From a virus (Duplodnaviria; Caudoviricetes): a DNA stretch of 49,958 nt. Numbering within the stretch: position 1 is the stretch's first letter; every line of letters starts with the position of its first letter. Below the pieces are notes generated by a model that was given only the letters and a program-made list of their open reading frames with translations, was not told the origin of the DNA and did no database searches. The position numbers and the translations under genes are program-made. Positions 6,199-42,028 of this stretch are shown here, piece after piece. The DNA lies in IMG/VR virus record IMGVR_UViG_3300025296_000021, positions 1 through 49,958 of that record; one strand, written 5' to 3'.

Positions 6199-6207
6199 GC
6201 AAAAGAC

Positions 6208-6236
6208 TTGACAAAATGGCATTTTTGACTTATATT
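6208..6236 (+). promoter_or_regulatory. sigma70-like promoter of the head operon (near-leaderless)
   Basis: TTGACA-N17-TATATT, then 8 nt to the portal ATG with no SD. Confidence 0.75.
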
Positions 6237-6244
6237 ATATATAC

Positions 6245-10992: not shown

Positions 10993-11096
10993 TCCTAATG
11001 AATAGGGATTAACAGTTTTGTTCACTGTGGGGCAGGTCGTATAAAGGGCTTGCCCCTAAAGAACAAGGTGGCTAGAGGGTCATACTTCTTTCCACC
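10991..11096 (+). ncRNA. Three-hairpin structured RNA candidate after the capsid genes
   Basis: Hairpins at 10991-11010, 11018-11066 (GGGGCAGGTC/GGCTTGCCCC plus TTGTTC/GAACAA) and 11067-11096 (GGTGG/CCACC). No U-tract. Confidence 0.45.
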
Positions 11097-11900: not shown

Positions 11901-12538
11901 TGGCATCGTTTCAAGTTCAGATTGAAGACATGGTTGGGATTGTAGGAAGTTCGGCAGATACTACAAGTGATACCACTGCTATAACTTCTTGGCTTACAGA
12001 TGGAGCTAAGGAAATTATTAATGCAATGTCACCAAATTTACTTGCATTGTGCGCGACGGAACAAACACTTACGCCAAGGGCAGTAGGAAGCGAAAGTTCT
12101 GCGGCGACTCTTAAGACAGGAAGAGTTTTTAATGTAAGGCGTAACGATGGTACGATTGACCAGCCTTGTAGGCTTGTCTCTTCAAGAGTTAAGGGACGAG
12201 TATCTGACCCGGATGAGATGGATTATGCTACAGCAACAGACCCGGTATACTATATTGAGAGCAATTATCTCAATATTCTTCCATCTTCTTCTAGCGCAGT
12301 AGGAAAATATTCAGAGGTTCAGTACCCTTCGGTAACTTACGATATTGATGCAATATCTACTTTTCCTGACGAAGCTGAATATTTGGTAGTATTATATGCT
12401 GCTATGAAAGCATCAGAAAGAATTGTTAGTGATAATATACGTGTTGATGAGGATATTGAGCTTGCAAACGCAAGGAAAGACCAGTATACTTGGCTTCAGA
12501 ATCAGTACGCAACAGGATTAAAGGCAATATCGGTATGA
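11900..12538 (+). CDS. Putative head-tail adaptor/ring protein
   Basis: WLTDGAKEII N-helix and FPDEAEYLVVLYAA C-helix pattern of connector proteins; synteny. Confidence 0.6.
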   Translation: MASFQVQIEDMVGIVGSSADTTSDTTAITSWLTDGAKEIINAMSPNLLALCATEQTLTPRAVGSESSAATLKTGRVFNVRRNDGTIDQPCRLVSSRVKGRVSDPDEMDYATATDPVYYIESNYLNILPSSSSAVGKYSEVQYPSVTYDIDAISTFPDEAEYLVVLYAAMKASERIVSDNIRVDEDIELANARKDQYTWLQNQYATGLKAISV

Positions 12539-12831
12539 CATTTAAAGAAATTTTATCGCGTGTAAGGCAGGTTCACGGAGAAGCAGGAGAAACCTATTGC
12601 AAGGCTCTTGCTAACGATGCGCTTATGGAGCTTAGAAAGTATAAGGTCTCTCGTAAGCGTTCAAAGATTAGTACAGTTGCAGACCAGCGTTGGTATAATA
12701 TTGGAGATAAGAACTCAGATTTAAAGATTGATAAAATTTATTCGGTATATTACAAGGATGGAGATGGGGATTATCGTAAAATTCCTCGCCTTGTAGATGC
12801 AGCATATTTAGTTAACATGGACGAAAAATAA
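12535..12831 (+). CDS. Adaptor-like protein, N-terminal half
   Basis: ATGA overlap; MTFKEILSRV...NDAL...DQRWY pattern. Confidence 0.55.
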   Translation: MTFKEILSRVRQVHGEAGETYCKALANDALMELRKYKVSRKRSKISTVADQRWYNIGDKNSDLKIDKIYSVYYKDGDGDYRKIPRLVDAAYLVNMDEK

Positions 12832-13208
12832 TGGCTTATACTTATCCAGAAGATTATTTGGCTTGGTACATATCGGGAGATAAGATTGCCCTCGTAACAA
12901 GAAAGAATACTTCTAGTAAGAATGTATATGAATCTATTGATGAGTCTCAGGGTGATGGATTGCTTATAGAATATAGCGCGGAGCCTCGCAAGATTGAGAA
13001 TATTTCAGATGTGCCAGATTGTGACAATACGTTACATACAGCAATTGTTAACTATTTAAAATGGAAATTATTTGAGGACGGAAACGATGAGGGTTCTATT
13101 ATGGGGGCAAGGCGATATGGCGGTCTTTGGAATAGGGCAGTTAAGGAGCATGCCACCAGAGACAAGGTGGGCGGCTCCAGACAGGTCATTCCGTTTTCGT
13201 TCAGGTAA
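12831..13208 (+). CDS. Adaptor-like protein, C-terminal half
   Basis: LLIEY..P...P....HTAIVNY pattern; TAATG coupling. Confidence 0.55.
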   Translation: MAYTYPEDYLAWYISGDKIALVTRKNTSSKNVYESIDESQGDGLLIEYSAEPRKIENISDVPDCDNTLHTAIVNYLKWKLFEDGNDEGSIMGARRYGGLWNRAVKEHATRDKVGGSRQVIPFSFR

Positions 13209-13211
13209 AGA

Positions 13212-13272
13212 TATGCCCATGTCAGTATTCTCGGGCGGAAAGGCATACAACTTAAAAGGAGATTAAATTATG
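13212..13272 (+). promoter_or_regulatory. Conserved leader RNA motif, copy 1
   Basis: Stem TATGC/GCATA enclosing CCATGTCA-N7-CGGGCGGAAAG, then AAGGAGATTAAATTATGG. Confidence 0.7.
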
Positions 13273-13605
13273 GCGTATCCAGAATATTCGGTAGTAGATT
13301 CTCAGAATATAACACTAGGTCAGAAGGGTGCAATTTTTGTAACAGGTACAACGGCAGTCACAAGCTCTAGTGGGATTTTTTGTGCGATTCAATTCATAGA
13401 AGATACAGTTTTTGATTCTGGCACTGCTGGCCTCATAGCGGAGAGTACTCAAAAATGGCCAGACTCTACGGGAACGGGCACTGCGATTGATTCTGATGGT
13501 GGTGCTGCAATAGATGGTGAAACCTTTCCTCAGGGGATGACTATATTTGGCAGATGGACAGGCTTTACACTTGCGTCTGGCGCATGTGTAGCCTATGTTG
13601 GATAA
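13270..13605 (+). CDS. Putative tail/virion structural protein
   Basis: Strong SD; beta-rich GQKGAIF...AIQFIEDTVF...FPQGMTIFGRWT. Confidence 0.7.
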   Translation: MAYPEYSVVDSQNITLGQKGAIFVTGTTAVTSSSGIFCAIQFIEDTVFDSGTAGLIAESTQKWPDSTGTGTAIDSDGGAAIDGETFPQGMTIFGRWTGFTLASGACVAYVG

Positions 13606-13730
13606 TGTTAAAATTAGGATTAAGCTTAGGGACGATGGTTACCCAAACTGCACGTCTTGCGCGTAACTTATGGGCAAGGATTAGTGATGTATGGGAATTA
13701 GAAGAACGTAGCTGGGAAAAGATTGTTTAA
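13605..13730 (+). CDS. 41-aa protein with a W-x6-W-x6-W motif
   Basis: MLKLGLSLGTMVTQTARLARNLWARISDVWELEERSWEKIV; TAATG-coupled. Confidence 0.65.
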   Translation: MLKLGLSLGTMVTQTARLARNLWARISDVWELEERSWEKIV

Positions 13731-13733
13731 ATA

Positions 13734-13806
13734 TCGCAACCATGTCAAAAGTTTCGGGCGGAAAGTTGCGAATCATACAAGGAAACTACAAGGAGATTAA
13801 ATTATG
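13734..13806 (+). promoter_or_regulatory. Conserved leader RNA motif, copy 2
   Basis: Stem TCGCAA/TTGCGA enclosing CCATGTCA-N7-CGGGCGGAAAG, then AAGGAGATTAAATTATGG. Confidence 0.7.
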
Positions 13807-14472
13807 GGTTTAACAGCACCAAGCAGTACATTAACTGGACAGGCTGTTGCAGACAGTTATGACCAGTTACTGTTTCTTGACGCAGCTGCAGGCGTTACAG
13901 AGGCGACGTTAAAGGTTGTTTCGGGAACTGCAGGAAAGACGGCTCTTCAAGTATCCGATGAGCATGTATTAATTAAGGGGGTTGATACTAGTAATGCGGC
14001 AGCATTTGCTGTTCAGCAAACAGGTGGTACTGTTGTATTTTCAGTTAATGCTTCAACTCCGGGCGTTACCATTGGTGCCGATGCTGATGGCACCGATAGA
14101 AGTATTACTTGGGGGCATTCTACCCTTAAGACAATTATGGGCATTGACGATAGTGCTGATGTATTTGCAATTAATACTGATGATGCTTTTGAGTCAGGAA
14201 ATGATTTGGAGATTGATGCAAGTGGAAATGTCATTATTGGTAATGGTACTTTAAAGCCTGCTGGAGATGGCACTCAAGACTTAGGTGCTTCGGGTGCTCA
14301 GTGGCAAAATGTATATACCTCTGATTTGAATTTAAACAATACAAGTAGGGATGGTAATGAGGTTGATGGAACTACTGGTCATTGGGTCATTCAAGAGGGT
14401 GACGAAAACCTGTTTTTACTTAATCGTCAAAATGGGAAACAATACAAATTTAATTTAGAGGAGATAGGATAA
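13804..14472 (+). CDS. Tail fibre protein
   Basis: C-terminal DLGASGAQWQNVYTSDLNL...GHWVIQEGDENLFLLNRQNGKQYKF, a fibre-tip pattern I recall from marine phages. Confidence 0.75.
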   Translation: MGLTAPSSTLTGQAVADSYDQLLFLDAAAGVTEATLKVVSGTAGKTALQVSDEHVLIKGVDTSNAAAFAVQQTGGTVVFSVNASTPGVTIGADADGTDRSITWGHSTLKTIMGIDDSADVFAINTDDAFESGNDLEIDASGNVIIGNGTLKPAGDGTQDLGASGAQWQNVYTSDLNLNNTSRDGNEVDGTTGHWVIQEGDENLFLLNRQNGKQYKFNLEEIG

Positions 14473-18772: not shown

Positions 18773-21209
18773 AACTTTTTACTATTTAAAAAACTTTGAA
18801 GGGGGTCTGGTTGATGCTTTCAATCCAAGGGATTTAAACAATAATGAACTTAGTGCGGCTCAAAATGTCATACTTGATGAGCGTAAGACTATTAGGACTC
18901 TTGGTGGGGATGCGACCCATGATGATATTAATGCAAGTCATGCTGCCAAAATTACTGGCGGGGCTGGGGTATTTGTATTTGGCTCTGACCATTTAAAGGG
19001 TGCCGCTGCTAATGATTATGGAGAAAACTGGCTTGCAATATGTGATGCCCCAAATTCTGCAATAGATTTATTTGATTTAAGTAGTGGTGCCTTTACTGTT
19101 GATGCGATTGATTTAGGTACTCCACAGAATGTGACCGTTAATAGTAGTTCTAATAATGTTACTATTGCAAATTCTACTAATACATCTACAGCTACCGCAG
19201 CTAGTAGTGCAAGTTTTGATGACACCATTAAGCCGGGAGATATAGTCCATATAGCTGGATTTTCTGGTGGTCTCGTGACAAGCAATTTAAATGGTGCATT
19301 TGTAAATTCTGTTAGCGATACGGTTATAACATTTAATAAAACATTTCCCGCTGTGGGTACTCAATCATCAGGAAATGTAATTTTTACTGTCCTGACTAAG
19401 GCTATATATTATTTTGTTGACGAGGCCTTAAGGGTGTCGGATGCATCTTTCTCTACCGGAACTAAGAATAAGTGGTATGGCTATATTAAAAGAAAGCATT
19501 TTCAGGATTTAACTCCCGGTGGCAGTGCAGATTCTTATGATAACTGGTTTTCTAATGATAATGACCTTGCTGCCCCAACCGAGGGTGCCTCCTCTGCTAC
19601 TTCCAATCTTGTGGGCACTGGGTATCCCGAAGCGGGATATGGATATAATATAAATGTTTCTTCAGCGGATACGGGAACATGGGATGGTTCAGAGTATCAA
19701 ATAGGTGTTTCCCATATCTATGATGGGAATCAAGAGTCGCTTCTTTATGTTCCGACTGCGAATAATACTATTACGCCGACTGCCAATCAGAATCTTACAA
19801 TTAATCTATTGGCAACTTCTCCTTTTGATGAGAGAAAAACTGGCGGAAGGATTTATATCAAAAAAACAGGTACAGACTATCCTTGGTCTCTTCTTGTGGA
19901 TATTGATTTAACACGTGGCGCACGTACCAAGATGGATTCAGATTATAAGGCTTGGGTTATAAATTCTGGAGCACAGGTAAAGGTCTTAGCTCTTGAGCTT
20001 GACGGTGAAAACGTGGAGACCTACGAGATTCTTAACGGATACACTCCCGACGAGTTTGCAAATAGTATTGGTGGTTCCGGAGAGGGCTATAAAACCGCAG
20101 TAATAGCCAATAGGCGGTGCTTTGTAGCAAACGTGAAGTTGACTAACGCCGAAGACAAGGGAACGACTACAATCCAAATGCGTGATAGAATTATGTATAC
20201 GCCAGTCGGCAGATTTGATACGTTTCCACGAAGTTTCTTTATTGATGTTGTGCAGGGCGACCCTGAAGAATGGATTCATCTTGAAGGGTTTGGTGATAGG
20301 TTGTTAGGTTTCAAGCAAAGAAAGCTTTACATATTAAATGTATCTTCTCCAACGTCCGGGGGATGGTTCCTAGAGGATGTGAAAGACTTTGCTGGTGTGC
20401 AACATTCGGCAGCCGTTGTGAAGACAGAGTTTGGTGTGATGTGGGCAAATGCGAATGGATGCTATCTATATGATGGTCGTGGGGTTCGCAATTTAATTCT
20501 GAATAAGATTAAAGAAACCAGCTGGGAAAATTTTATTAAGCCGACCAGTATTATGGGATATGTTCCCAAGCAATATTATGCTTATGTTTTAAAAGATTGC
20601 TTTGCCGACGATGGTGATGCTTATGTATATGATTTTCGCACAGGTGCTTGGGTTAGTGGCCAGTCTGTGTTTGCTGATGATTATAACAGGTCAAATAATG
20701 TAGTTGATTGGAATAATAACATGGTAAGTGTTTACCAATCTAAGAATGATGCTGCCGAGTATTGGGAAAATATTGGTGATAAATTCAATAGCATGACAGA
20801 CGACTGGGAACAGCTTGATTCAAGTACGCCGCCTGTTAATGTGAAGCAATGGGGTGATGATGCTGTTGGAAAAAATGTTAATACGATTGATATTAAAACT
20901 AAGGATATTGACTTTGAGGAGCCTGCATATACCAAAAGACTGTACTCGGTTCTGTGTACATATAAGAGCAGTTCTCCCCAGACCAATCCTATTCTGTATG
21001 CCACAGATGGTGGGACTACGTTCACTGCACTTACGGGAGACTTTTCCAGAACGTCAGACTGGAAGACTTTAAGGGCGACTCTTGCAAGGCCTGTGAATTG
21101 CCAGAGTGTAAGATTGCAGGTTACAAATTCTACAAATGTTGGAACGCTTGAGGTTAATGATATTAGTCTTGAGTTTAGACCAGTAAAGAAAAGGATTGCT
21201 ACTTCGTAA
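18765..21209 (+). CDS. Tail nozzle / tubular protein-like (beta-propeller)
   Basis: 814 aa. N-terminal NFEGGL...PRDL...AQNV, beta-rich body, C-terminal KTKDIDF..P...KRLY; synteny before ejection proteins. Confidence 0.65.
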   Translation: MPKTFYYLKNFEGGLVDAFNPRDLNNNELSAAQNVILDERKTIRTLGGDATHDDINASHAAKITGGAGVFVFGSDHLKGAAANDYGENWLAICDAPNSAIDLFDLSSGAFTVDAIDLGTPQNVTVNSSSNNVTIANSTNTSTATAASSASFDDTIKPGDIVHIAGFSGGLVTSNLNGAFVNSVSDTVITFNKTFPAVGTQSSGNVIFTVLTKAIYYFVDEALRVSDASFSTGTKNKWYGYIKRKHFQDLTPGGSADSYDNWFSNDNDLAAPTEGASSATSNLVGTGYPEAGYGYNINVSSADTGTWDGSEYQIGVSHIYDGNQESLLYVPTANNTITPTANQNLTINLLATSPFDERKTGGRIYIKKTGTDYPWSLLVDIDLTRGARTKMDSDYKAWVINSGAQVKVLALELDGENVETYEILNGYTPDEFANSIGGSGEGYKTAVIANRRCFVANVKLTNAEDKGTTTIQMRDRIMYTPVGRFDTFPRSFFIDVVQGDPEEWIHLEGFGDRLLGFKQRKLYILNVSSPTSGGWFLEDVKDFAGVQHSAAVVKTEFGVMWANANGCYLYDGRGVRNLILNKIKETSWENFIKPTSIMGYVPKQYYAYVLKDCFADDGDAYVYDFRTGAWVSGQSVFADDYNRSNNVVDWNNNMVSVYQSKNDAAEYWENIGDKFNSMTDDWEQLDSSTPPVNVKQWGDDAVGKNVNTIDIKTKDIDFEEPAYTKRLYSVLCTYKSSSPQTNPILYATDGGTTFTALTGDFSRTSDWKTLRATLARPVNCQSVRLQVTNSTNVGTLEVNDISLEFRPVKKRIATS

Positions 21210-31347: not shown

Positions 31348-32655
31348 ATGCCACAAGATAAACAGGATATGCTTTCTCCTGTGGAGTTTCTTAATATCGG
31401 AATGCAGCTCCAAGATTTGTTTGGTCAAAAACAAGCATACAGCTATGCCCAACCAGATGTATCTGGTGTTGCACTAGGCGATATGGAGCAACCATCTGAG
31501 CCGGGAATATATCCCACACCTAAAAAATCTATCGGTAGTCGTGCTCTTGACTTAGCTGAATTTATTACAGCTCCGGTTACTACTGAAGGATACAATCCAA
31601 TACGTAGCATGCGGGAGTCTGAGACTGCCCTACAGGGACTTGGGCATTTACCGGGAGCTTTAATCAGTTTAGGAGCGTCTGGATTTGGTGCGAAGAAACT
31701 TGCTGGTGCCACTGGAAGAAAGGCATTAGGTGAGTTGGCAACGAGGGCAATAAGACCTTATCGTTTTTCAACCAAATCAAAAGAAGTGATTAAAGCTATT
31801 CGCAATCCATCTTCTCTTAAAACCTTATCCACAAGAAGAGACCAATGGAGCAAATATCCTCATCATGTAGACGTCAATACCCATCTTGGAAGAATGTTTG
31901 CCTATCGCAAAGCTTTTAATCTGAAGCCACCGAAAGAGTCTCTAGACATGTTTACGAGAGAAGGTAAAAAACAATATTCTCTTAACCTGAGAAATGACAA
32001 ATCGCGCCAGTTGGGACTGGATATACTGTCAAGAGAGGGTGTGCAGGGAACACATCCAGTATTTGGACACTATACTAGAAGCTTTAAGCCTACAATAGTA
32101 AAGGGAAAGCCTACTTTTGAGACTAGCTATAAAGATGTATGGGATTGGGCTTTTAATAAGGGAGAAATTGCCTCAACCTTCAAAGATATGATGCGTGCTC
32201 CAAATCTGTATAAAGACATGGGTAATCCTCTTTCTTTATTTCTTCAAAGAGGTGTGGCAAGTTCTCTCTCAAAGCCAATTACATTTAAGGGGACTATTTC
32301 TGGTAAAGATTATATGAATTTACTAGGACTTCCGAAGTCATTGTCTTCTACGGGAACAACTCAGGCAAGTCTTGCTTTGGAGCGTTATTTAGAACACATA
32401 AAACATACATTATTAGATGGTACTGGCATGGTAAAAAAACCATCTAAGGCGTGGTGGAAATCACATGATAATATGATTGAACGTCTTTTAAAGAATAAAC
32501 GCTTTCAAATGGAGGCGGAGAGTCAGATTGGTGCGAGGGCAACCACTCGCGCAGGCCTCGAAATTGATATGAATCCATTCTTCAGGTATTATGTAAACGC
32601 ACTTTATGGTCTGCCAAAAGGTACTAAAAATGCAGCAGGACAGGTTATTAGATAA
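31348..32655 (+). CDS. Array protein with shared N-terminal leader (MPQDKQ...)
   Basis: Leader paralogous to 30884; unrelated basic C-terminal domain. Confidence 0.8.
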   Translation: MPQDKQDMLSPVEFLNIGMQLQDLFGQKQAYSYAQPDVSGVALGDMEQPSEPGIYPTPKKSIGSRALDLAEFITAPVTTEGYNPIRSMRESETALQGLGHLPGALISLGASGFGAKKLAGATGRKALGELATRAIRPYRFSTKSKEVIKAIRNPSSLKTLSTRRDQWSKYPHHVDVNTHLGRMFAYRKAFNLKPPKESLDMFTREGKKQYSLNLRNDKSRQLGLDILSREGVQGTHPVFGHYTRSFKPTIVKGKPTFETSYKDVWDWAFNKGEIASTFKDMMRAPNLYKDMGNPLSLFLQRGVASSLSKPITFKGTISGKDYMNLLGLPKSLSSTGTTQASLALERYLEHIKHTLLDGTGMVKKPSKAWWKSHDNMIERLLKNKRFQMEAESQIGARATTRAGLEIDMNPFFRYYVNALYGLPKGTKNAAGQVIR

Positions 32656-33698: not shown

Positions 33699-35107
33699 TG
33701 CCACACGGTTTTCCACATACACAGACTGCTGAAGCTGACCAGACTGTTGTCAGGCTCGGAGATTTAATGCTTGACATGCCGGAGGATACCACTCCGCAGG
33801 AAAAATCTGCATTGTCTTCTTTTCTTATGTCTATGCTGGAGCCTGCTCCCGGCTTTAATCCCATTCAAGACATTATACAGTCTCCCACACCTGTTAGGGA
33901 GGCAATTCGTCAGGCTCCTTTCCTGCCTATGGCTGCCGCTATGGCAGTAGGTGGCGGTAGTGGTAAGAAGAAGGTTGTTCAGGCTGGTGCTAGGCGTATA
34001 CAATCTAAGAAAACAGTGGATAAGTTAGTAGAAACGCTAAAAAGAAATGAAGAAGGGCTTTGGGATGAGTTTAAGATGTCCGGTAGCACCGAGGGCACAC
34101 TCCATGGCACGGGAATTGTTGGGAAAGGTGATATTAAAAAAACCAATTATTCGATACGGTCTGATAGGGCGATGGATGAAATGCGACACCATATTTCAGT
34201 TAATAAGCCTGAAGGCATGGCTTCTGTAGACTTTGCAAAGCAAGGTGATGAAATATTCATTGGCACGCTTGAGTCGTTTGGTACGAAGTTACCGGAGAAG
34301 ATAACGAAAAGTCAGCGCCATCAGTGGAAGCCCCTGCGTAAGCGTCATAGCATACAGAGGCAGTCTGCTCTACAGGAATTACTTGGAGCGGTTGCAGAGT
34401 ATGCCAATAAAGGAGATGTTATTCATCCGGGAAGCCTTACATCAGATTCGTTTACAATGATAACCAATGCTTTAAGGAATCCTAATTTAGGATTCATAAG
34501 GGGTGGGCTGAAAGAGAAATTTAAAATTGTAACCGCAGAAGACCTTAAGGCTATGGCTCAAAAGGGAAGCCGACCAGAGGGATGGACTGCGGAAAAAGCA
34601 CGTGAAATGCTTGAGTATTCAAAGCTTATTGGAACCAGAAGACTCTCCACGGGAGGTGACCTTGGATATGCCGATGCTTTTGGGGCGGTTGGTAGAAAAA
34701 AGAAAGAATTGGGGACTGCAATGATGAGGATATTTGCTCCAAATAAGGCTTCGTTGGGTGGGATGGAAAAGCTTCTTAAAGACATTCAAGGAGTGCAGAG
34801 GCAAGCCTACAAGGTTGCAAGGAGAGCACCAAGCAATATAGATGCAGATATTAGTGACGAGTTTCTAGCCCAATTAAATAAAAGTAAAAGTGCAATTAAA
34901 AAACTTCAGGATGCGTATTGGCATTCTGCCGAACGTGCACATGGCAAGAGGGGAGCAAGGAAACTAAATGAGGCCCAAAGCAATGATATATGGAATTTCC
35001 TAATGGAACACCGTGCGGTTTCAGAGCAGGCAGAGGATTCCATTCTTGACCTTCTCGATACCAAAAATGTGTTTACCTATAAACCATTCGCTATTATAAA
35101 AAAATAA
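33698..35107 (+). CDS. Array protein, unknown function (possible GNAT-like segment)
   Basis: 469-aa coupled ORF. Weak beta-beta-helix pattern (ASVDF...EIFIGTLES...LQELLGAVAEYA). Confidence 0.7.
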   Translation: MPHGFPHTQTAEADQTVVRLGDLMLDMPEDTTPQEKSALSSFLMSMLEPAPGFNPIQDIIQSPTPVREAIRQAPFLPMAAAMAVGGGSGKKKVVQAGARRIQSKKTVDKLVETLKRNEEGLWDEFKMSGSTEGTLHGTGIVGKGDIKKTNYSIRSDRAMDEMRHHISVNKPEGMASVDFAKQGDEIFIGTLESFGTKLPEKITKSQRHQWKPLRKRHSIQRQSALQELLGAVAEYANKGDVIHPGSLTSDSFTMITNALRNPNLGFIRGGLKEKFKIVTAEDLKAMAQKGSRPEGWTAEKAREMLEYSKLIGTRRLSTGGDLGYADAFGAVGRKKKELGTAMMRIFAPNKASLGGMEKLLKDIQGVQRQAYKVARRAPSNIDADISDEFLAQLNKSKSAIKKLQDAYWHSAERAHGKRGARKLNEAQSNDIWNFLMEHRAVSEQAEDSILDLLDTKNVFTYKPFAIIKK

Positions 35108-36602: not shown

Positions 36603-37012
36603 AGAGTTAGCTTGATTACGGGGACTAAGACCATCTGGCTCTGATTATTGTCCCCACCAGACACGTCTCTGGAAGTTCCAAGGTACTGGCTTATGATGTC
36701 CCTAAGCTTGCAAGTCTGTATAAGAATACAGACTTCTTCGTTGATGAATAATGCCCACCACTTTGCTTTTGTGGAAGTTATTCCTGAAGGCTCACCACTG
36801 CAGGCGTACTCAATTGCTACATTTCCCGTGTCACCTGTCTTGAAGTCCCGCTTAACCTCAACCGTTGCAAGTATGGATGCCAACTTATTTTCGGATAACT
36901 TTCCCTCAGCCAAGTTAAGGTCAAACCGCTTATCTGCTTTACCGTTCTTTCTGGCTTGTAACAATAAACTGGTGAACTGTTCCTCTGTAATATCAATATT
37001 CATCTTCATCAT
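36599..37012 (-). CDS. PD-(D/E)XK nuclease-like protein
   Basis: FDLNLAEG...VEVKRD...TGNVAIEY...PSGITSTKAKWW. Confidence 0.65.
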   Translation of the reverse strand: MMKMNIDITEEQFTSLLLQARKNGKADKRFDLNLAEGKLSENKLASILATVEVKRDFKTGDTGNVAIEYACSGEPSGITSTKAKWWALFINEEVCILIQTCKLRDIISQYLGTSRDVSGGDNNQSQMVLVPVIKLTL

Positions 37013-37259
37013 GTATTACCTTTATTACTTTTTCTTGACATATCGGACACTCTTTCTTTTTAAGTCCTAGGCTGGGGAAATCACCATAGACGTGCATTTT
37101 TGATGTATCGTCAACTTCATACTGCCAAGCGTATTGGTGTTCTTTACACCATAAAGGCGTTGAAACCCTTGGCTTACTTCCCCTGCAGGGCCAGTAATTA
37201 TCATCCAGATAAGTCCTAACAGCCTCCCAAATGCTGTCTTGTGTTTTTATTTCATTCAT
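36993..37259 (-). CDS. Hypothetical Zn-binding protein
   Basis: WCKEH...CPIC; AGGAG SD. Confidence 0.6.
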   Translation of the reverse strand: MNEIKTQDSIWEAVRTYLDDNYWPCRGSKPRVSTPLWCKEHQYAWQYEVDDTSKMHVYGDFPSLGLKKKECPICQEKVIKVIHDEDEY

Positions 37260-41830: not shown

Positions 41831-41965
41831 CTTGAATTTACTACCCTTAGGGGTGGTAAACAAGGCAATCCCAAAAGAAAAAAAGATTCTTTGCCCAAAA
41901 AGTAGAGTTGTACCAAAGATGAAAACCATCCATCAGGGGAATAATTTATTTATTACCATGACTAC

Positions 41966-42028
41966 TATATATATATATATGTATATAGTATAGATTAATA
42001 AATAAATAGATGGTGTAGATGATTATAT
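41966..42028. repeat. C-free AT-rich tract 2
   Basis: (TA)n-GTATA-TAGAT-AATAAATAAATAGA, same orientation as tract 1. Confidence 0.8.

Follow-up and report, generated by a model that had tools for sequence, protein, structure and literature searches.

Sequence comparison indicates that two intergenic elements in a marine-type phage genome are copies of a real, conserved and uncatalogued mRNA pseudoknot, located on the initiation regions of probable head-spike genes. Each element begins with a hairpin that encloses a fixed internal core. Covariation indicates that the loop of this hairpin pairs further downstream with the AUG and codon 2, with the Shine-Dalgarno sequence, or with the bases just 5' of it. 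A preliminary description of this DNA had noted a duplicated motif. That observation holds, and the element proves larger than the version first described, which missed the complementarity between the loop and the downstream initiation region that makes the structure an H-type pseudoknot. The pseudoknot is the main clue to how the element may work.

Genome setting

The window, that is, the whole stretch of DNA analysed, is an entire phage genome, 49,958 bases long, and has a terminal repeat of 96 nt. Ahead of the studied region the genes run in the order terminase, portal, SU10-type major capsid protein, and a split adaptor. The adaptor, also SU10-type, is seemingly divided between two ORFs (12490-13208) that each give one weak half-match to PF24175. 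A stop codon lies 3 nt 5' of the hairpin in both copies. The sigma-70-like promoter of the virion block (Table 1) is likely, from its match to the consensus, to be the start of a polycistronic virion transcript carrying both copies. A similar site at 1770-1802 stands before the packaging genes, as the one at 6205-6237 stands before the virion genes. One metatranscriptome contig covers 13628-13982, a kind of record that cannot show transcription or transcript ends.

Table 1. Coordinates of the RNA elements and associated features in the window
Feature	Position	Strand	Basis or detail
Sigma-70-like promoter, virion block	6208..6236 (6205-6237)	+	11/12 consensus matches
Upstream gene, C-terminal half of SU10-type adaptor	12831..13208	+	PF24175, E 3e-4, below curated cut-off
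Copy 1 hairpin	13212..13247	+	Covariance model, 50.4 bits (copy in training set)
Copy 1 pseudoknot helix	13229..13262	+	Loop 13229-13232 with 13259-13262, within Shine-Dalgarno 13256-13262
111-aa small beta-sandwich protein with conserved N-terminal arm, probable head-spike base	13270..13605	+	Predicted fold
41-aa peptide, probable spike base/fibre anchor	13605..13730	+	Alternating-leucine N-terminus, W-rich C-terminus
Copy 2 hairpin	13734..13771	+	Covariance model, 50.5 bits (copy in training set)
Copy 2 pseudoknot helix	13750..13787	+	Loop 13750-13755 with 13782-13787, 6 bp
222-aa 'MAxLTG' family fibre protein	13804..14472	+	phrog_892 tail fibre, E 7e-8
88-aa zinc-ribbon protein, candidate trans-acting factor	36993..37259	-	Co-occurrence with motif

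The capsid protein of this phage shares at most 27% identity with those of cultured phages, and no cultured relative was found. The 111-aa protein had no match among GenBank phages, where the RNA gave short chance matches only. A search for the host identified none.

Several other structured or repeated sequences were observed. A conserved double hairpin follows the capsid region (11006-11062), and in L246, L290, L294 and L333 the double hairpin lies about 80-90 nt 5' of the pseudoknot motif. AT-rich repeats that include a 17-nt tandem unit and TA runs occur in inverted relative orientation at 945-1059 and 41944-42007. Two long-range inverted repeats lie inside the virion genes, one of 29 nt and 90% identity (19883-19911 with 31817-31845) and one of 21 nt and 100% identity (31846-31866 with 34721-34741). 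A related phage contig contains a group I intron (L140:1327-1580; RF00028, 98.5 bits).

The two copies in the window

The core, CCATGTCA-N7-CGGGCGGAAAG, occurs at 13217-13242 and 13740-13765, so that the two intergenic copies with equal spacing reported in the preliminary description were borne out. No further core copy was present in the window even when 4 mismatches were allowed, and a covariance model found no third copy. A reduced core pattern occurred twice in the window against an expectation of 0.02, and none of 100 shuffled sequences reached two. The closing stems (13212-13216/13243-13247 in copy 1 and 13734-13739/13766-13771 in copy 2) are, as described, unlike in sequence while both pair. 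In copy 1, the outer helix P1 joins 13212-13217 with 13242-13247 and encloses a 3-nt bulge, a Y-G pair, a bulged A, a U-G pair, and a second helix, P2 (GUC/GGC), capped by a 10-nt loop whose first base is A and last base is G. In copy 2, P1 joins 13734-13740 with 13765-13771, and the internal core and P2 are as in copy 1.

Two details of the preliminary description stood in part. CATACAA occurs in both copies, but out of register: in copy 1 it shares bases with the stem, and in copy 2 it is set 3 nt beyond the stem. Homologues keep ACAAG or AAAAG immediately 5' of the pseudoknot strand, rather than CATACAA. Likewise, the identical 18-nt initiation region is present in the window (13256-13273 and 13790-13807), but its identity is peculiar to the window lineage. 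Together, the copies in this genome share 19 core and 18 initiation bases. The folding energies of the two copies are unremarkable (z -0.91 and -2.27), and the evidence for structure is therefore covariation, not stability. Without pseudoknots, the lowest-energy fold predicted for copy 1 is a competitor that pairs the 5' stem with the start region.

An RNA family defined by covariation

How widespread is the element? A scan of IMG/VR for the exact core gave 13 stretches. Searching by protein, with the 111-aa gene as query, yielded 80 loci, and the general form of the motif was read from their leaders. P1 ends in an invariant C-G pair, which is followed by Y-A-U opposite G-G-N-A-A, a 3-bp P2, and a loop of 8-12 nt with A first and G last. 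P2 is of the type GAG/CUC, GUC/GGC, or GGG/CCC. Two scans of IMG/VR with the motif only gave at least about 120 stretches each, and a scan for other P2 types gave 26 stretches with 2 real GGG/CCC copies. The family comprises at least 141 distinct variants among the matches listed, with 1-2 copies per genome; one of the 141, L352, is probably a chance match, and the invariance of the core in this set was largely imposed by the search patterns. In the 48 records searched, most of them picked for having the motif and some of them fragments, 46 contained it, 41 as a single copy and 5 as two. The unbiased protein scan found it in 27 of 38 distinct upstream regions and found it absent from 11. Carriers include marine phages that, judged by the sizes and order of their genes, are podovirus-like or siphovirus-like, and among them are phages with unrelated capsids.

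Evidence for the hairpin comes from the way its stems vary. In 50 distinct variants, 94.5% of the 600 hairpin cells were paired and 8 of the 12 pairs were double-changed. The covariation score of the closing-stem hairpin was reached by none of 500 shuffles, in a shuffle that ignores relatedness. The four inner P1 pairs were intact in all 126 sites that had been selected, with no filter on the stem, for the core plus initiation signals downstream of it. Of the 504 cells of these pairs, 493 were Watson-Crick, 11 were G-U, and none was A-C, which points to an RNA on the coding strand. On a protein tree (FastTree, 75 proteins, first 10 residues removed), the four P1 pairs switch 13, 9, 1, and 4 times, matched on both sides. 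In other words, the stem covariation first noticed between two copies extends to homologues beyond the window, and this pattern indicates that the hairpin with its fixed internal core forms.

Bacterial genomes were searched as a possible source of host copies. A protein search of GTDB gave no locus, and a narrow pattern scan gave 7 weak matches, the best at 21 bits against 37-61 bits for true copies; at least one of the seven falls inside a reverse-strand reading frame. Accordingly, no host copy was found. A metagenome scan with a loose pattern returned 119 loci, 117 of them with closing stems of at most 3 pairs; these are chance matches, and by eye none of the 119 lay in a spike-gene context.

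Pairing of the loop with the initiation region

The helix between the loop and the initiation region is fitted in three ways, and compensatory changes occur in each. In the GAG subtype, the partners of the loop are the U and G of AUG together with codon 2. The GUC subtype ahead of the small gene, to which copy 1 belongs, pairs its loop inside the Shine-Dalgarno sequence. In the subtype before the fibre gene, to which copy 2 belongs, the loop pairs just 5' of the Shine-Dalgarno sequence. The 3' strand of the knot usually has ACAAG or AAAAG directly 5' of it. The copy 1 knot is 4 bp, while most relatives of the same subtype have 5-7 bp. In copy 2, ACAAG (13777-13781) stands 5' of the knot strand, and the knot ends 2 nt short of the Shine-Dalgarno sequence (13790-13796).

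Several observations support this pairing. At least 4 bp form in 108 of 110 loop/target combinations, with a mean score of 12.2 against at most 7.8 for shuffled loops. GAG loops fit an Ala, Gly, Ser, or Thr codon 2, with pairing in 72 of 73 and in 68 of 73 (p 0.0005 by permutation), and on the tree of 75 proteins one loop/codon-2 pair shows 5 changes on each side. For the GUC knot helix (34 sequences), 89% of 200 cells were paired, 5 of 6 pairs were double-changed, and register 0 scored above all slides. The knot overlaps the Shine-Dalgarno sequence or the start codon in two subtypes (90 of the 110 combinations), nearly all in register. The remaining subtype, that of the fibre gene (20 of the 110, copy 2 included), has its knot mostly upstream of the Shine-Dalgarno sequence, and direct masking therefore does not apply to it. 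The covariation and the loop pairing support the earlier suggestion of a cis-acting structured RNA at translation initiation.

An unrelated motif occupies the same position in other phages. Three leaders that lack the element (L175:3942, L193:3930, and L200:3931) carry CTCATTCAC ... TTAGAG. In IMG/VR this second motif was found in 82 stretches (L516-L597), 50 of them distinct, mostly before arm-bearing genes like that of the spike base and in some cases before adaptor-like genes. Here too the loop pairs with the start codon, and a U of the loop is replaced by A where AUG becomes UUG. The loop/target score was 11.2 against at most 8.2 for shuffled loops, and four loci compared with Rfam gave no match. 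Two unrelated folds on one target argue for selection for control of initiation.

The downstream genes

The genes behind the two copies had been taken for tail genes. This assignment is probably incorrect. Both copies probably lead genes of a head spike, namely a base, a short anchor peptide, and a fibre, judging from a likeness to the gene transfer agent RcGTA, the linkage of the anchor peptide, and the position of the module next to the capsid gene. The spike base of RcGTA is described as a jelly-roll pentamer that grips the fibre via alternating leucines, and the base protein binds the capsid through its N-terminus (PMC7296036).

The predicted structure of the 111-aa protein (pLDDT 75) had its best fold match, out of 48,161 chains, in the GTA capsid chain E3 of 6tb9, which has 84 residues; the Z score of 5.5 is middling (rmsd 3.7, 79 aligned). 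Chain h of the Carin1 capsid (87 residues) gave a similarly middling Z of 5.1. Foldseek gave no match at E 0.001, and the 111-aa protein did not match the spike-base model NF048002 (RCAP_Rcc01079). Among five other motif-led proteins, two passed this model (66 and 58 bits against a cut-off of 28), both from one small-protein cluster. The profile match of the 111-aa protein to that cluster spans the 17-residue arm only. Arm-bearing proteins share this N-terminal arm even where their bodies differ.

Linkage to the next genes extends the comparison. The N-terminus of the 41-aa peptide resembles that of the RcGTA head-fibre anchor, as the latter is presented in PMC7296036, and the peptide would probably bind the spike base and the fibre as an anchor split from its fibre. 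A MAxLTG gene followed the 41-aa peptide in all 55 readable cases, and the peptide was upstream of 76 of 77 MAxLTG genes. By a crude pattern, the gene after the small gene starts with alternating leucines in 39 of 87 cases. By this linkage the 222-aa MAxLTG protein would more probably be a fibre of the head spike than of the tail. The module also adjoins the capsid gene, apart from the tail genes, in siphovirus-like genomes of 30-35 kb. The motif as a whole keeps to such genes: the 226 distinct downstream proteins among the matches listed comprise 158 small arm-bearing proteins, 66 MAxLTG proteins, and 2 that are cut off.

Possible mechanism and alternative explanations

How might the element act? 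In the model favoured here, each copy would act in cis as an mRNA pseudoknot of 50-60 nt and gate the initiation of translation at the following gene. When the knot is formed, the 30S subunit would be unable to initiate efficiently, and the output of head-spike base and fibre might thus be kept low relative to capsid on a long polycistronic mRNA. The element may also have a role in stoichiometry, which the preliminary description proposed for tail proteins. More tentatively, a protein that locks or opens the knot may recognize a surface made by the invariant bulges together with the A-rich linker, which ends in AAG. A role in translation initiation is likely when the protein-operated gate, a ligand-free brake, a riboswitch, and autogenous repression are taken jointly. 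The specific version, a translational gate opened or locked by a protein, is plausible on the sequence patterns although somewhat short of probable.

The best candidate seen for the recognizing protein is a small phage zinc-ribbon protein; a host protein could also fill the role. This family of 80-100 aa was present in 8 of 9 carrier genomes and, like the spike gene, is shared across both genome types. It was found in 19 of the 27 motif genomes with a completeness of 90% or more (12 of 20 when those of the training set are left out) and was not found in the other 8. None of 31 unrelated phage records contained it, a control set of mostly incomplete records that are not close relatives lacking the RNA. 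It was as common with the second motif (18 of 23 near-complete genomes; 37 of 50 for either leader) and therefore may mark only a lineage or a host. The zinc ribbons are mostly basic, but the window copy has diverged and is acidic (pI 5.3). Of 8 members, none reached the Pfam cut-off, and the family had no PDB sequence match. By analogy, the zinc-ribbon protein is a candidate for acting on the knot as Com of phage Mu acts on its mRNA.

The knot might also work without any ligand. It would then be a brake that fixes initiation at a low rate until ribosomes completing the upstream gene open it, with the invariant bases only building base triples. A-rich linkers docking on stems are ordinary pseudoknot anatomy, which favours such a brake. 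Coupling to the upstream gene is a real rival because the upstream stop codon lies at most 15 nt from P1 in 113 of the 121 cases with an upstream ORF. However, short gaps are normal in phage genomes, no upstream ORF ends within 45 nt in 23 of 144 cases, and in several cases the RNA comes after a G+C-rich hairpin instead of a gene end. A plain hairpin would also be enough for a brake, yet the core is fixed while both stems have been rewritten. On balance this explanation is rather unlikely. A riboswitch, in which a small molecule or ion at the stem junction stabilizes the knot and lowers head-spike synthesis according to host state, would suit the compact H-type pseudoknot over the initiation region, its invariant non-helical core, and the use of one RNA by phages with unrelated capsids. 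It is nevertheless distinctly unlikely: the downstream genes are all of virion type (224 of 226 in probable virion families, 2 cut off) with no metabolic link, GTDB yielded only the weak pattern matches, and riboswitches are described as rarely found in phages (PMC5473149). A broader proposal, itself unlikely, is that the element represents a new phage-borne class of switch, responding to a host metabolite or ion or to the zinc ribbon, that would let unrelated marine phages set the number of spikes per progeny head in each infection, and that the second pseudoknot does likewise in sister phages.

Repression by the product of the controlled gene has a precedent in gp32 of phage T4, which acts through a pseudoknot (PMC3014915), and the spike-base protein could be imagined in the same part, as in different genome types the RNA accompanies the spike gene, whose products have an N-terminal arm in common. 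But these proteins are acidic (median pI 4.18, 0 of 107 above 7) and are beta-sandwiches, not of a nucleic-acid-binding type. The same arm is also found behind the unrelated second motif, and in RcGTA the base is reported to bind the capsid through its N-terminus (PMC7296036). Autogenous repression is thus very improbable. Hardly better is the prospect that the element processes or stabilizes the downstream mRNA as a self-cleaving ribozyme, a nuclease site, or an exonuclease block; this is quite improbable. It is small, pseudoknotted, and intergenic, has invariant bulged bases, and need not cover the Shine-Dalgarno sequence with its knot, but no Rfam ribozyme model matches, and most knots use the start codon or Shine-Dalgarno sequence and constrain codon 2, which processing would not need. 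The preliminary description had offered recombination anchors in DNA, used to swap fibre modules, as an alternative. The copies flank a variable module and have the core and initiation bases in common, but the stems diverge with pairing kept, their four inner P1 pairs include coding-strand G-U but no A-C, the initiation region and the loop covary, and 41 of 46 motif records (some of them fragments) have a single copy. This alternative is not supported and can practically be dismissed. Two other candidates were rejected. Upstream and downstream frames vary (28, 52, and 41 of 121), which speaks against fusion by stop-codon readthrough or frameshifting, and a leader peptide from the AUG in the core would have a frame that shifts with loop length.

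Comparison with known systems

The preliminary description had not recognized the motif as a known riboswitch or ribozyme, and the Rfam check agrees. Rfam 15 gave no matches in the window, and within 13180-13850 no hit fell on the motif even with E as high as 10. Across 11 homologous loci, the only match on a copy was PsrR1 on the reverse strand (E 4.7, 23 bits against 42). No published description of the motif was found in the literature searched.

The preQ1, SAM-II/V, SAM-SAH, and guanidine-III riboswitches are translational riboswitches that form an H-type pseudoknot over the ribosome-binding site. The element shares with them a compact hairpin, a loop that pairs with the initiation region, an A-rich linker, and an invariant unpaired core. 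It differs from them in having no Rfam 15 match and in preceding virion genes, and one of its subtypes uses the start codon and codon 2.

In a related effort, Fremin, Bhatt and Kyrpides (2023) mined intergenic regions of IMG/VR and obtained 8,495 anonymous candidate RNAs (PMC10690425). These are like the motif in source collection, size range, and origin in marine tailed phages, and the hairpin may be among them without a function assigned. The portions of that article available here do not name such a motif, a pseudoknot, or a link to head spikes.

The operator of T4 gene 32 is likewise a phage mRNA pseudoknot tied to translational control of the downstream gene, as outlined in PMC3014915. 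According to the same source, the T4 knot is located 67 nt upstream, where it nucleates the binding of gp32 along a stretch without structure; in the present element, the initiation signals are drawn into the knot itself, and the encoded protein is acidic. In phage Mu, the 62-aa zinc finger Com is reported to activate the translation of an mRNA that has its start codon in a stem (PMC6483171). As in the Com/mom system, a structure hides the start codon and many carrier phages encode a small zinc protein with four cysteines. The Com motif CC(N)2-3GAG given in PMC6483171 matches the 5' core of the GAG subtype, a match that may be due to chance because the GAG is paired and the GUC subtype has no GAG. 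By the same account mom uses hairpins, whereas the element is a pseudoknot. The target mom is a DNA-modification gene, whereas the genes targeted here are probable head-spike genes. As for these genes, the RcGTA head spike (Rcc01079 base and Rcc01080 fibre; PMC7296036) likewise has a small jelly-roll base gene followed by an alternating-leucine gene. In comparison, the window fibre seems split into a 41-aa anchor and a separate fibre. The RNA is absent from two cultured phages with canonical spike-base genes.

Few cases of translation control by pseudoknots have been described in tailed phages, and a 2010 review considered T4 gene 32 to be perhaps the sole viral example of an autoregulatory pseudoknot (PMC3014915). 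Here one fold is kept across unrelated phage architectures and re-fitted to the initiation region in three registers; it constrains codon 2 in a virion gene, and an unrelated motif is its counterpart at the same position. As a 55-nt object, it is directly testable and bears on how phages set the amount of attachment spikes on the capsid. While belonging to none of the known systems tested, the element resembles pseudoknot riboswitches and protein operators in its apparent way of working.
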